Assembly: GCA_938084645.1 (NCBI GenBank)
Contig: CALKEP010000011.1
Location: 1-64,000 of the forward strand
Length of the DNA: 64,000 bases
Source: an uncultured Phycisphaerales bacterium
Lineage (GTDB): Bacteria > Planctomycetota > Phycisphaerae > Phycisphaerales > SM1A02
Direction of reading: 5' to 3'
Made by a program: the position numbers and the translations under genes. A model generated the notes under the pieces. The model ran no database searches. It was not told the DNA's origin and worked only from the letters and a program-made list of their open reading frames with translations. How positions within the stretch are numbered: position 1 is the stretch's first letter; each line of letters starts with the position of its first letter. Below are positions 27,993-47,683 of this stretch, one piece after another.

Positions 27993-28913
27993 ATGAGCGA
28001 AGGACTCGACACCGTCATCGGAGGCGGCGCGATCGATGAGGCGCGAGCCGACGCGGTCTTCAAGCAGGGACTCGACTGCGAGTCCGCGGGTGACCGGCTC
28101 GGTGCGATCGTCGCCTACCGCGAAGCCGTCTCCCATTGTGGCAAGCCGGAGCACCTTCATCGTCTCGCCTACCTGCTCGACCTCGTCGGCGAGGAAGAGG
28201 AGGCGATGCAGATCTACGAGGCCGCGCGAGAGACCGGGACCCCGAAGCTCCAGACACTGATCAACCTCGCGGTGATCTACGAGGACGCCGGCGACTTCGC
28301 CAAGGCCGAGTACATCCTCAATCAGGTGATCGAGAGCGATCCGAACGAGCCGCGAGCCCGTCTTTTCCTCAAGGACGTGCAGGCATCGCGAGGCATGTAC
28401 TACGACGATGACGAGGATCGCACCTCGTCGCGACACGACGCGATTCTCGACATTCCGGTCACCGACTTCGAACTCTCGGTGCGGGCGCGAAACTGCCTGA
28501 AGAAGATGCAGATCCGCACGCTTCGCGACCTGGTTCGCGTGGGCGAAGCGGAACTCAACAGTTACAAGAACGTCGGCGACACCACGGTCGCCGAAATCAA
28601 GCAGATGCTCGCGAGCAAGGGACTCCGACTCGGGCAGGACACCGCGGGCGGACCGCGGCTCCGGCAGGAGGACATCGACGAACTTCACGAGCGAGGCATC
28701 ACCGATCAGATCCTCAACAAGCCGATTTCGGTGCTGGATCTCTCGGTGCGGGCCCGCAAAGCCCTCCAGATGCTCGGCGTGCTTTCGCTCGGCGAGCTGG
28801 CGGCACGAACCGAGGCGGAACTTCTCGGTGTGAAGAACTTCGGCCAGACGAGCCTGGACGAGATCAAGGAGCGTCTGGGCGATCACGACCTGTCGCTCAA
28901 GACCCTCGACTGA
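27993..28913 (+). CDS. TPR protein with two tandem RNA polymerase alpha-CTD-like domains
   Basis: TPR segment (LINLAVIYEDAGDF..A) followed by ELSVRARNCLKKMQI.TL.DL and DLSVRARKAL...LLGVKNFGQTSLDEIK; no alpha-NTD. Confidence 0.9.
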   Translation: MSEGLDTVIGGGAIDEARADAVFKQGLDCESAGDRLGAIVAYREAVSHCGKPEHLHRLAYLLDLVGEEEEAMQIYEAARETGTPKLQTLINLAVIYEDAGDFAKAEYILNQVIESDPNEPRARLFLKDVQASRGMYYDDDEDRTSSRHDAILDIPVTDFELSVRARNCLKKMQIRTLRDLVRVGEAELNSYKNVGDTTVAEIKQMLASKGLRLGQDTAGGPRLRQEDIDELHERGITDQILNKPISVLDLSVRARKALQMLGVLSLGELAARTEAELLGVKNFGQTSLDEIKERLGDHDLSLKTLD

Positions 28914-29061: not shown

Positions 29062-30510
29062 ATGAGCGTCGAAGAATCGAATCAATGCGATCCCGGGAGT
29101 TCCGGTCGTGCGGAGTTGAAGATCCACCGGCGAGCGATGCTGCTGGTGGCGACGACGCCGATCCTGGTTCCGTTCGCGTGCTCGAGGACCGATGGGACGG
29201 CGGATCCGGCTGCCGGCGATCCACCGGTCGCGGCGTCCCCTGTCCGGGCCGAAGTCCCCGATCTTCGACCGTTTCCGCCCAGTATCGAACCACTCGTCCG
29301 CATCAAGGTCGCGAACACCGCCCGTCGGACCGTCGAACTCGGGCGGGTCGGTCAGCGTCTGTGGATCACCCAGCCCGGTTCGGAATCGGCGGGTCGCGCC
29401 GTACGCGGTCCGGTTCGCATCGTTCGGGATGATGAGGGCTGGTCCGTGCGCTGGTCCCAGGGGGGGCGGGGTTCCTCCGCTCGGTTCGTCGGCGCTGGTC
29501 CGCTTGCGATCGCCGACGGAGACGCCCAGGCCCAGGGAATCGACTTCGAGGGCCGACGTCTTCGTGGAACCATCCGGATCGTCTCGATTCGAAACACCGC
29601 CGGCGAGCCGGAGCTCGATCTCGTGTGCACGCTTCCGATGGAGCAGTACCTGCCGGGCGTCCTGGAGAAGGAACTCTTCGCGTCATGGCGACCGGCGACC
29701 TTCGAGGCGCAGGCGGTCGCGGCGAGATCCTTCGCGGTGTGCGAGCGAGCGTTCTGGTTGCGTCGGCGACACTACGACATGGTCGCCGGACAGGCGAGCC
29801 AGGCCTGGAGCGGGGGAGCCGCCTCGCGTCGCTCGAGGGATGCCGTGCAGGCGACCGCCGGCCGCGTCCTGCTCTGGAGAGGTCAGGTGGTTCCCGCCTA
29901 CTACAGCGCAGCGTGCGGTGGTCGTCCGGCGAACGCGATCGAGGCCATCTCCGCCAACCAGGTCAATCGCATCGCCCCGTTGACGGTCGATGGGGGGACC
30001 GCGAGGCGACGGTGCGGCTGCACCACGGACAGTCCGCACGCCGACTGGCGGATCAGCGTGGGCGAAGACGCGATGGTCGAGGCGCTGCGGGCCTACGGGC
30101 GGCGTGTCTCGAATCAGGCGCTGGCCTCCATCCGTGGACCCGTCGAAGTGACGGTTCGTCGTCGCAACGCGGCGGAACGTCCGATCGACTTCGAGGTGCG
30201 TGGCTCCGGCGATCCGATTCCGGTCGTCCTTCCGGCAGGTCGAGTGCGATCCGTGGTGGCGGACGCGGGCGGACGTCGCTCCTGGAAGGATGGTCCGCGA
30301 TCGGCCTGCCTGGAACTGACCGGCGCGGACCGAGGCTACAGGATCGAGGGCCGTGGATTCGGCCACGGCGTCGGACTCTGCCAGTACGGCGCCGAGTCCA
30401 TGGCACGCGGCGGCGCGTCGAACCTGGAAATCCTCGCTCGCTACTACCCCGGGGCCACGGTGGGCGTCGCCTGGGAGAGCGCGGCCCCGCCGCAAGCGGC
30501 GTTCAGTTGA
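29062..30510 (+). CDS. SpoIID/LytB family lytic transglycosylase, possibly a Tat lipoprotein
   Basis: MEQYLPGV..KE, EAQAVAARSFA, AYYSAACGG, GRGFGHGVGLCQYGA..MA, IL..YYPG; N-terminal HRRAMLL...FAC. Confidence 0.93.
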   Translation: MSVEESNQCDPGSSGRAELKIHRRAMLLVATTPILVPFACSRTDGTADPAAGDPPVAASPVRAEVPDLRPFPPSIEPLVRIKVANTARRTVELGRVGQRLWITQPGSESAGRAVRGPVRIVRDDEGWSVRWSQGGRGSSARFVGAGPLAIADGDAQAQGIDFEGRRLRGTIRIVSIRNTAGEPELDLVCTLPMEQYLPGVLEKELFASWRPATFEAQAVAARSFAVCERAFWLRRRHYDMVAGQASQAWSGGAASRRSRDAVQATAGRVLLWRGQVVPAYYSAACGGRPANAIEAISANQVNRIAPLTVDGGTARRRCGCTTDSPHADWRISVGEDAMVEALRAYGRRVSNQALASIRGPVEVTVRRRNAAERPIDFEVRGSGDPIPVVLPAGRVRSVVADAGGRRSWKDGPRSACLELTGADRGYRIEGRGFGHGVGLCQYGAESMARGGASNLEILARYYPGATVGVAWESAAPPQAAFS

Positions 30511-30606
30511 ACCGGACGGTGTGCCCTGGCGGCTCTTGAAGGTCGTTCCGATCCCGGGATGGCGGGTTGCATCGGTTCACCACGGATGACGACCTCGGGC
30601 GATGAC

Positions 30607-30692
30607 GATTCGATGATTCGATGAATCGATGATTCACTGCGGAGTCATCGCGTCGCCTTTGCGATCATGATGATCATGGTGATCATGGTGAT
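30607..30692. repeat. Two short tandem repeats: 8-mer CGATGA(T/A)T x3 and 9-mer GATCATG(A/G)T x3
   Basis: Directly visible at 30607-30635 and 30663-30692. Confidence 0.8.
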
Positions 30693-30717
30693 GCATTCGC
30701 GGCAGGGGAGGTCGATG

Positions 30718-30757
30718 AAAAAAAGACCGGACGCGTCTTTTCAGAGCGCGTCCGGCC
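30718..30757 (-). terminator. Rho-independent terminator (may act bidirectionally)
   Basis: Minus strand GGCCGGACGCG...CGCGUCCGGUC followed by U7; the plus-strand side is followed by TTTATGTTT. Confidence 0.88.
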
Positions 30758-31030
30758 TTTATGTTTCCTCGGCTTCTACCTGGACATGGGTGAAGTCACT
30801 TGCGTGCCTCTGCCCCTTGTGATGCTTGTACGGGAGTTCCCTTTTCCCAGTACCTGCGTTTTTCCGCTGCGGGTAAGTGCCCTTTTCCCAAGTGCAGCGG
30901 ATCTCAAGGACCCTTTTTCCAAGCTACGCCGGTGTTCCCGCACCGACTCAGCCGAAGTCCGGAAAGGGATATGCAATTGCAAGGCCCTTTCCTGCTCCCT
31001 GTCCCTAGCGAAGGAGAAACGCCGGGGACG
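30718..31030 (-). ncRNA. Putative ~310-nt structured ncRNA with repeated GG(G)AAAAGGG / GGA motifs
   Basis: Own promoter and terminator; consecutive hairpins (GUCCC..GGGAC, GGAAAGGG..CCCUUUCC, CGGUG..CACCG, CCGCUGC..GCAGCGG, GUAC-U-GGGA..UCCC-GUAC); lower GC than the flanking genes and no ORF with genome-like codon usage. Confidence 0.7.
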
Positions 31031-31035
31031 CGAGA

Positions 31036-31093
31036 AGTATGTCACCGGAATCGGGTCGTGTCAGGCTCATCATCGGTTTTTCTAAAAAAAAAA
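31036..31093 (-). promoter_or_regulatory. sigma70-type promoter with extended -10 and AT-rich UP-element-like tract
   Basis: Minus strand CTGACA (31059-31064)-N17-CATACT (31036-31041) with TGn; T10-AG-A5 tract at 31077-31093. Confidence 0.65.
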
Positions 31094-31292
31094 CACCCAG
31101 GGCTTGCCTTCGCGGAATCGCACCGGCGACGTGGAATCGCAAGTCGCCATCAAGACGAGGCTTGTGACGTTCTGCAGGCATGCCCGGGTGGATCGCGGTG
31201 CTGCGACGCAGGCACGAAAAACGCCGCCCGGCAGAGGATGCCGGGCGGCGATATCGGGGTGGAGGGCGGGGTTCCGGGGGATCAGCCTCCGC

Positions 31293-32222
31293 TCAGTGAC
31301 CCGCTCGAGACAGCGTCTTGCCGGTCTCGAAGGTGGGGGTCTCCGGCGTCTCCGGGGACTCCGGGTCGATGTCGAAATCATCCCAGGAGAAGTCCTCCCA
31401 GCCGTCCGAGTCGAGTGACTGACGGGCCCGCTTCTCGTAGTCCGAGCGCGATCCTCGACTCGCCAGCGACTGGAGCTGTGCTTCCTGCACCGTCCGGAGC
31501 TCGGCAAGCTTCGATTCGAGCTGGTCCAGGCTGCCGACTTCCGCGAACTTGTCGTAGTCCGCGAGCACCTGCTGCTGCTGCTGGGTCATCTCGATGAGCC
31601 GTTCGTTGCGATCGATCGCATCGATCTGCCGGTCCAGCTGCCAGAGCTTCGCCTCGTATCGAGCGTGCTCGTCCTCGAGGGTGTCGAGGATCTCCGCGAG
31701 TCGACCCTTCTGAGTGTTGAGGAAGTCCAACTGGGTCTCGTTCCCCGCGTGACGATCCTGGTAGGTCGAGCGAATCGTCGCGATCCGTCTCGCTTCGTTT
31801 CGAGCGCCCTCGAAGTCGACGGTGCGGCCGTCGACCCGGATGGACACCGTGCGTCCGGCGCGGGCATCGAGTTCGGAATCGGTCAGGGCGATTCGGAGTT
31901 CCGAAAGATCCGAGGCGGTCATCGCCACGACCCGTCGGGCGACATCCTGATCACGCTTGAGGAGGTCGATCTGTCGATCGACTTCGGCGAGTTCGCCGGT
32001 CACTTCCGCGATCCGCTCTGGATATCGCTCGGCGAGCTGGGAGAGTTGGCGACGCAGGGCGATCGGATCGTCGACGAAATCATCGGCGACGGCACGGGCT
32101 TGGTTCCGGATCTGGTCGAAACCGGCCGCAATGCGGTCGGGACCGACGATGAAGGCGAGGGTGCCGAGGCCAGCCGCCCCGATCAGCCCCCAACGCAAGA
32201 CGCAACGACTCATGCTGAACAT
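31293..32222 (-). CDS. Membrane-anchored coiled-coil protein, PspA/IM30-like
   Basis: N-terminal hydrophobic segment, DDPIALRRQL (resembles PspA EDP..L.Q), long heptad helices, LDQLESKL....EAQL, acidic tail; AAGGGA RBS. Confidence 0.6.
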   Translation of the reverse strand: MFSMSRCVLRWGLIGAAGLGTLAFIVGPDRIAAGFDQIRNQARAVADDFVDDPIALRRQLSQLAERYPERIAEVTGELAEVDRQIDLLKRDQDVARRVVAMTASDLSELRIALTDSELDARAGRTVSIRVDGRTVDFEGARNEARRIATIRSTYQDRHAGNETQLDFLNTQKGRLAEILDTLEDEHARYEAKLWQLDRQIDAIDRNERLIEMTQQQQQVLADYDKFAEVGSLDQLESKLAELRTVQEAQLQSLASRGSRSDYEKRARQSLDSDGWEDFSWDDFDIDPESPETPETPTFETGKTLSRAGH

Positions 32223-47014: not shown

Positions 47015-47310
47015 GTCGGGTCCGATGGCCGTCTCGGGCTGCCTTCGGCGGCTCAGCGCAAGATCAGCCCGAAGATCGGCCCTGAACGCCGTCAAACGAA
47101 GGTTGATCACCGGGGTGAGCCGCCTTGCCTCATCCGTTCACCCTCGAATCGGGTCCATTCGCCCGCTTTTTTCGGTGAAGCTTGACGATTTCGCGTACCA
47201 TCCGCCGTTCGATGGGGTGTCCGGATTGCCGGATACATCGAAACCTCCGAGCGCAGATTCGCCCTGATGGTCGCTTTCGGAAATCGCACAGCAGGGCAGA
47301 GATCACGCTC

Positions 47311-47649
47311 ATGAAGCTCTTCGTTGGAAACCTCCCCTTTAGCGCTACTGAAAACGAAATCCGCGACGCCTTCGAGGCCCACGGTGAAGTTTCGGATGTC
47401 GCCGTCATCACCGACCGCGAAACCGGTCGCCCCCGTGGATTCGCGTTCGTCGAAATGGCCGACTCCGGTCAGGCCAACGCGGCGATCGAAGCCCTGAATG
47501 GCCAGGACTTCGGTGGTCGTTCCATCAACGTCAACGAGGCCCGTCCTCGTGAGGATCGTCCTCGTGGCGGCGGCGGCGGTGGTGGCTACGGCGGTGGCGG
47601 TGGCCGTGGCGGCGGCGGCGGCGGCGGTGGCCGCGGCGGTTGGCGCTGA
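47311..47649 (+). CDS. RRM RNA-binding protein with Gly/Arg-rich tail
   Basis: RNP2 LFVGNL, RNP1 RGFAFVEM, VNEARPRE, GGGRGG tail. Confidence 0.96.
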   Translation: MKLFVGNLPFSATENEIRDAFEAHGEVSDVAVITDRETGRPRGFAFVEMADSGQANAAIEALNGQDFGGRSINVNEARPREDRPRGGGGGGGYGGGGGRGGGGGGGGRGGWR

Positions 47650-47683
47650 ATATCGCATCCGCGATATCATGAAGTTCGAAGAT

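Follow-up and report, generated by a model that had tools for sequence, protein, structure and literature searches.

A conserved RNA with repeated G-rich loops in Phycisphaerales, and its possible role in the control of surface-protein mRNAs

We examined a 64,000-nucleotide (nt) stretch of an uncultured Phycisphaerales bacterium (assembly GCA_938084645.1, contig CALKEP010000011.1, positions 1 to 64,000). This whole stretch is hereafter the window, to which all window coordinates refer, and its host genome is labeled G000. On the minus strand, between a SpoIID-family gene and a coiled-coil gene, lies a non-coding RNA, here called the G-loop RNA (Table 1). It is genuine: a structured RNA that stands alone, is preceded by a conserved promoter, ends in a terminator, and has stems that covary. 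An earlier note on this DNA had proposed a minus-strand unit at this place with a CTGACA-N17-TGnCATACT promoter, at least six hairpins, and a U7 terminator, with no protein gene downstream on that strand, and all of these points were borne out. The promoter-like CTGACA-N17-(TG)CATACT at 31064-31036 is the sole match within 2 kb, where 0.2 would be expected, and TGACA and TGnCATACT are near-invariant in the alignment of 9/9 genus sequences. A -10-like hexamer also stands upstream of those homologs whose sequence was read. The window RNA has seven hairpin loops and a U7 run, with a folding z of -5.4 against shuffles; no same-strand gene follows it, and SpoIID converges. The minus strand was assigned on account of the promoter, the U run, and G-U pairs.

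Table 1. Features at the G-loop RNA locus (window coordinates)
Feature	Position	Strand	Basis
G-loop RNA (non-coding, about 313 nt)	30718..31029	-	5' end inferred from promoter
Sigma-70-type promoter: -35 at 31059-31064, extended -10 at 31036-31043	31036..31064	-	genus conservation
5' hairpin, C/U-rich loop 31011-31019 = UUUCUCCUU	31001..31029	-	predicted fold
GGAAAGGG copy, paired within stem, not displayed	30985..30992	-	predicted fold
Hairpin with loop CGGGAA (30935-30940); 3-4 repeats of this hairpin in genus g77	30928..30947	-	
GGAAAAAGGG copy, partly unpaired	30911..30920	-	
GGGAAAAGGG copy, distal loop of covarying stem	30880..30889	-	
Central hairpin, loop AAAGGGAAC; the family's most widely retained internal motif	30836..30848	-	
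Terminal hairpin and U run (intrinsic terminator)	30718..30759	-	
Convergent SpoIID-family gene, commonest syntenic neighbor	29062..30510	+	
Upstream coiled-coil gene, own terminator 31222-31250; neighbor in some genera only	31293..32222	-	

What repeats in this RNA is not generic GGA but loop-borne (A)AGGG(A). Across the host genome, the window RNA is the densest 300-nt window for AAGGG/AGGGA/GGGAA, with nine sites against seven in the next, while 86,699 such windows hold none. AGGGA occurred 204 times in 37 representatives against 36 expected, and in 50 representatives the N of A-N-GGA was G in 262/312 cases, with CA(A/C/U)GGA found just 9 times. Predicted hairpin loops touched GGG in 161 of 320 cases and held GGA without GGG in five; AAGGGAA was the joint commonest loop word (50 counts). 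Roughly a quarter of AGGG sites lack GGA because C or U follows, and in many fixed loops GGG comes last, directly before a paired C (20/20 in one subgroup). The loop of the terminal hairpin also ends in AAAAGGG in most homologs. Some details of the earlier note were adjusted. Its "about a dozen" GGA triplets were counted as 12, but just 4 are predicted to be unpaired (p > 0.5), 3 of them inside GGGA. Across the 37 representatives, GGA that is not part of GGGA is largely paired (p unpaired 0.19-0.46). All four motif copies it listed are present, with two of its coordinates off by one base (corrected: 30839-30848, 30880-30889, 30911-30920, and 30985-30992). The anti-Shine-Dalgarno-like loop that it saw in the 5' hairpin is present but restricted to two genera. 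This loop may pair in cis with the GGGAG that comes after it; both partners are invariant, so no covariation test of the pairing is possible.

The RNA recurs within one family. A BLAST search gave a match in 8/9 same-genus genomes, with the same flanking genes, and in 0/51 others. Extended with three models and one pattern, the search placed G-loop RNAs in 48 genomes out of the 151 in one Phycisphaerales family, spread over 17 genera; most of these RNAs were read by eye and a few were accepted on scores below 1e-12. Over all species genomes, 52 of the 55 pattern matches were homologs. A synteny search behind SpoIID in 40 genomes lacking a match yielded 3 more RNAs and none in the other 37, and inspection of 14 weak R3 matches yielded one homolog. 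Homologs are 228-422 nt long with 4-11 motifs each. No paralog was found in G000. Outside the family, weak matches in 7 of 100 class genomes were all ordinary terminators when read (no phylum-wide search was made). In a quick SpoIID tree of 26 genomes, all 16 RNA-bearing ones fell in one clade (SH-aLRT 98), which also includes one genome with no RNA found. Presence is mixed in genera g28 and g87. Genome G064 (locus L435, genus g48), inside the RNA clade, has a C/U-tract leader and no detected RNA, and may contain a divergent member. In genome G080 (L280:560-801), the 3' half of the terminal hairpin recurs 4-5 times in tandem behind the RNA.

Covariation accompanies this distribution. When the genus sequences were aligned, double-sided changes appeared at 16 of 90 pairs, and 98.8% of cells paired. 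None of 500 shuffles reached the number of compensated cells; because the structure was derived from the same sequences, this is supportive, not independent. The terminal hairpin showed double changes in 9/12 pairs. Among the subgroup alignments listed, stems covaried in 51/150, 27/73, and 11/76 pairs, and in 1/80 in one shallow group, with the GGG loops invariant while their stems covary. The RNA is also present in RNA libraries. Among the runs listed, eleven on record as RNA contain the stretch, and 4 of the 24 listed runs, from four studies and chosen for holding the RNA, were examined. In each of the four, a single contig of 99%+ identity fell within 30751-31020, and no other long piece matched across 14 kb; such contigs speak to presence in RNA libraries, not to ends, strand, or level. 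Missing cover of the flanks was not counted as evidence, because the runs were chosen for the RNA and gave contigs only.

Known RNA classes did not account for the element. There was no Rfam match in the window at gathering thresholds, no Csr/Rsm model among 15 weak matches, and no match in 16 further loci. A weak sR20 match is explained by short imperfect ATC-based tandem repeats at 30595-30695, just beyond the terminator and not retained in relatives. The earlier note had recognized no hallmarks of transfer-messenger RNA (tmRNA), RNase P, signal recognition particle (SRP), or 6S RNA, and a scan of the window together with Rfam models agreed: no tRNA-like ends or tag peptide were found in the window (the host tmRNA lies on contig C1), RF00010 gave no match (the host RNase P RNA lies on contig C47), and neither the 6S nor the SRP model matched. 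A riboswitch or leader identity was rejected, there being no constant same-strand downstream gene across genera: the neighbor is a convergent SpoIID gene in some, and in others a BamB-like gene on the same strand follows the terminator. A coding RNA was likewise rejected, as overlapping open reading frames had no Pfam match and a closed ATG frame of at least 30 amino acids occurred in just 12/50 representatives. The proposal of an undescribed RNA family, structured and acting by titration of either a protein or another RNA, is supported by the absence of an Rfam match, the covariation, and the RNA libraries. We found no description of it in the literature searched, though motif catalogs in supplements, preprints, and subscription journals could list it; nor did a characterized regulatory small RNA of this kind in Planctomycetota surface there.

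Candidate targets came from genes for exported proteins. Two G000 genes encode small exported proteins with a PEP-CTERM-like tail, and their leaders share a hairpin and a GGG-type ribosome-binding site. Among the G-type leaders of G000 are those of the genes at C69:1031 and C17:8411. We take these proteins to be PEP-CTERM-like from the visible tail motif and from recall, NCBIfam giving only sub-threshold MYXO-CTERM and PEP-CTERM matches. The motif occurs in 144/151 family genomes, with up to 37 copies, and the tail, below NCBIfam cut-offs in the three proteins tested, is probably an unmodelled variant of the sorting signal. Orthologs of the two genes carry an A-run-GGG at the ribosome-binding site in 11/12 leaders, often with upstream GGG hairpins. 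AGGG stood at the site in 21/24 loci from RNA-bearing genomes (2 no, 1 unclear) against 5/16 from other genomes (9 no, 2 unclear), tallies made by eye over loci L323-L395 and not by a scripted start-anchored count. A further 20 copies of the 11-base motif in RNA-bearing genomes included 3 located at such sites and 5 antisense to similar leaders; in genomes without the RNA, 2/20 copies had such a location. Family-wide counts of this 11-base motif were no higher than a reversed control and were excluded from evidence. Genome G014, with no RNA detected, holds 22 copies on many contigs, often as 7-base tandem repeats.

Because of the copies opposite similar leaders, a set of 123 leaders was assembled. 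A UUCCC/CCCUU tract was present in 33/56 leaders from 16 RNA-bearing genomes against 9/67 from 25 genomes without detected RNA (p 1e-7), and two or more tracts in 18/56 against 2/67, at a leader GC content of 0.55 and 0.56, respectively. The signal is confined to the leader and to the mRNA strand. For RNA-bearing genomes, tracts occurred in 37/63 leaders, 9/62 far-upstream regions, 10/63 coding regions, and 14/63 antisense sequences; the corresponding counts for the others were 9/67, 14/66, 8/67, and 13/67. This strand specificity disfavors a double-stranded DNA site. Tracts stood most often in the context UUCCCUU, counted 17 times across 63 leaders, which is the reverse complement of AAGGGAA, the consensus of the loops. 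Within G000, TTCCC was found in 8/25 PEP-CTERM-like leaders against 263/2438 others (p 0.004). Interaction energies including opening costs reached -3 kcal/mol or lower for 24/46 against 2/39 leaders (subsets of the 63 and 67; a partly circular comparison). Among the C/U-type leaders of G000 are those of the genes at C18:12407 and C12:40437. Three more G000 loci with 4-5 C/U tracts in a leader or between genes (C10:69266, C40:43213, and C22:39669), one of which precedes a large exported protein, are possible further targets.

As the leaders carry the exact complement of the loop, the RNA probably controls the amount of surface proteins. Our preferred reading, to which we give a probability of about 45%, is that the G-loop RNA is a multi-loop base-pairing regulator of surface-protein mRNAs. 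An independently transcribed, trans-acting RNA would use its stems to hold 4-11 single-stranded (A)AGGG(A) loops open. Several loops at a time would pair, each over 6-10 base pairs, with UUCCC(U)/CCCUU tracts of PEP-CTERM-like 5' leaders, tuning translation. Activation is slightly favored: the tract can form a fold with the neighboring Shine-Dalgarno sequence, from which the RNA would displace it. In modeling, blocking the tract lowered the opening cost of the ribosome-binding site by 0.81 kcal/mol against 0.16 for shifted blocks (n = 37, p 0.003). We infer the physical pairing, its direction, and the biological role.

Several observations weigh against this reading. The cognate RNA pairs no better than non-cognate ones (12 genera, permutation p 0.60-0.74); the own RNA was the best or joint-best partner for 3 leaders of genome G100 and 2 of G155. 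Ranking all G000 leaders by duplex energy against the loops gave no preference for PEP-CTERM-like ones (p 0.49), and the helices are short, about 7 base pairs. Hfq was not found in 5/5 genomes. The between-genome contrast amounts to one event, because the RNA-bearing genomes form one clade, and the 123 leaders were drawn from 159 loci with automatic starts, loci without a start call being dropped. Finally, the second class of leaders bears the loop motif itself at the ribosome-binding site, which pairing alone leaves unexplained. A bolder form of the pairing reading would cover this class too, though we consider it unlikely: a multivalent switch in which up to 11 G-rich loops pair, without Hfq, with clade-acquired C/U tracts in dozens of PEP-CTERM-like leaders and free their ribosome-binding sites, loop-copying leaders compete, and the cell swaps two sets of surface proteins.

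The second leader class could also reflect a protein. The RNA would then be a sponge for a hypothetical protein that reads AGGG in loops and represses mRNAs with the same motif at the ribosome-binding site, on the working principle of CsrB with another protein and another code. The ortholog leaders and by-eye tallies fit this rather unlikely alternative, as do the automatic leader set, in which AGGG stood at the site in 13/56 against 5/67 leaders (p 0.02) and the loop word twice or more in 8/56 against 2/67, and the variable number of hairpins, which suits avidity. However, no candidate protein emerged: SpoVG, Hfq, and R3H were not found in 5/5 genomes, RRM proteins were found in all five, with or without the RNA, and no RNA-binding gene is a neighbor. 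The 16S tail, too, pairs with AAAGGG, which may be a mere Shine-Dalgarno variant. The enrichment in G000 leaders is weak and not strand-specific: it was not significant within 120 nt for PEP-CTERM-like leaders (p 0.07-0.39), the motif at a loose threshold was near-equal on both strands (12 vs 11), and hairpin-loop AGGGA genome-wide showed no strand bias (51 vs 60). Such a sponge would also leave the stronger C/U-tract signal unexplained. The window itself encodes a single-RRM, Gly-rich RNA-binding protein (47310-47650, plus strand), one of three G000 RRM genes.

An RNA that titrates CsrA through GGA, as CsrB/RsmZ do, had been suggested by the earlier note, together with the presence of CsrA in planctomycetes. 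CsrA is indeed encoded by 148/151 family genomes, including 48/48 with the RNA, a frequency that makes it non-discriminating. The G-loop RNA resembles CsrB/CsrC and RsmX/Y/Z in size, in having its own promoter and terminator and many purine-rich loops, and in a host CsrA (PMC7652899, PMC4005645), and AGGGA is a valid CsrA site, its pentaloops binding RsmE with high affinity (PMC4005645). Ten RNA-bearing genomes had no FliW match and one weak-scoring CsrA each, so only a divergent, non-flagellar CsrA paralog could be the partner; this paralog retains M1, T5, R6, and the HR motif in 80/80 loci. Even so, the suggestion is doubtful, and we regard such a sponge as improbable. The hallmark of CsrB/Rsm RNAs, A(N)GGA with variable N in short unpaired loops, is replaced here by strict GGG in A-rich loops of 6-12 nt, many without GGA, in an RNA outside Gammaproteobacteria. 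The invariant loops ending in GGG and a paired C, and the rarity of CA(A/C/U)GGA, sit poorly with a site whose A and GGA bases are not replaceable according to excerpts of PMC4005645 and PMC3791407. CsrA is, moreover, family-wide and the RNA clade-limited. In 70 regions upstream of csrA, the N of loops was U in 27, A in 23, C in 14, and G in 6, against G in 262/312 for the G-loop RNA.

G000 also has a different RNA with canonical loops. On contig C52 (L085:940-1125, plus strand), a multi-hairpin RNA at the mraZ tail, near the divergent csrA, carries CA(U/A)GGAU loops and a terminator; it is a candidate for the true CsrA sponge. Both RNAs are present in several assemblies, and two loop codes in one cell argue for two partners. 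Besides this paralog, G000 has a flagellar CsrA beside fliW. The paralog (L085:1441-1665, minus strand, and loci L141-L220) shows high conservation throughout Phycisphaerales; it has a 4-residue insertion and altered aromatic positions ahead of the conserved proline, and its ribosome-binding site looks hairpin-presented. The flagellar cluster (L084:26-1803, plus strand) joins a flgL-like gene, fliW, and csrA, and is apparently missing from several RNA-bearing freshwater genera. As CsrA antagonists, RNAs have been proposed for Gammaproteobacteria and FliW for Planctomycetes (PMC4682653; PMC7652899). If the G-loop RNA did bind CsrA, it would be an RNA antagonist of CsrA in FliW-bearing bacteria, a point left open in excerpts of PMC7652899.

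Still more improbable is an RNA-RNA network, in which G-type ribosome-binding sites would be repressed in trans by C/U-tract RNAs, be they leaders or a small RNA, and the G-loop RNA would soak up these repressors. One pairing code would then cover both leader types, but no stand-alone C/U-loop RNA stood out by eye among G000 intergenic clusters with at least 4 tracts, and mRNA-mRNA pairing has no direct support. A decoy for the 30S subunit or a G-quadruplex scaffold is very improbable: pairing of AAAGGG with the host 16S tail CCUCCUUUCU is possible and genus g64 has four GGG runs at close spacing, but the optimal AGGAG is avoided (16 vs 262 AGGGA), as is AAAGGA (11 vs 170 AAAGGG), and the four-run pattern is not general. 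Under all five readings the RNA would serve to control translation, most likely that of surface proteins.

The closest architectural analog of the G-loop RNA is the Cuckoo small RNAs of Alphaproteobacteria (RSs0680, ar14; PMC4615179), likewise built of adjacent modular hairpins with variable number and stems and one fixed loop word. Unlike them, the G-loop RNA lacks the CCUCCUCCC loop motif, its G-rich loops being roughly the mirror of CCUCCUCCC. It is also longer, with a nested multibranch fold, single-copy, planctomycetal, and in hosts where no Hfq was found, and its predicted partner is not the Shine-Dalgarno sequence itself but a tract upstream of it. The UCCC-loop small RNAs of Firmicutes (LhrC, RNAIII, and RsaE) similarly carry several redundant short seeds in loops, but the polarity is reversed: in the G-loop system GGGA would be on the regulator and UCCC on the mRNA. 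The upstream control of PEP-CTERM genes described in excerpts of PMC1569441 is a proteobacterial sigma-54 system. For marine and freshwater bacteria, the G-loop family offers a concrete candidate for post-transcriptional regulation whose candidate regulon can be named. Each leading outcome would, if true, be new: a mirror-image multi-loop pairing code, a GGG-reading repressor with its sponge, or an RNA that antagonizes CsrA in bacteria with FliW. Elsewhere in the window, a plus-strand gene at 27993-28913 encodes a protein that combines TPR repeats with two RNA polymerase alpha C-terminal domains.
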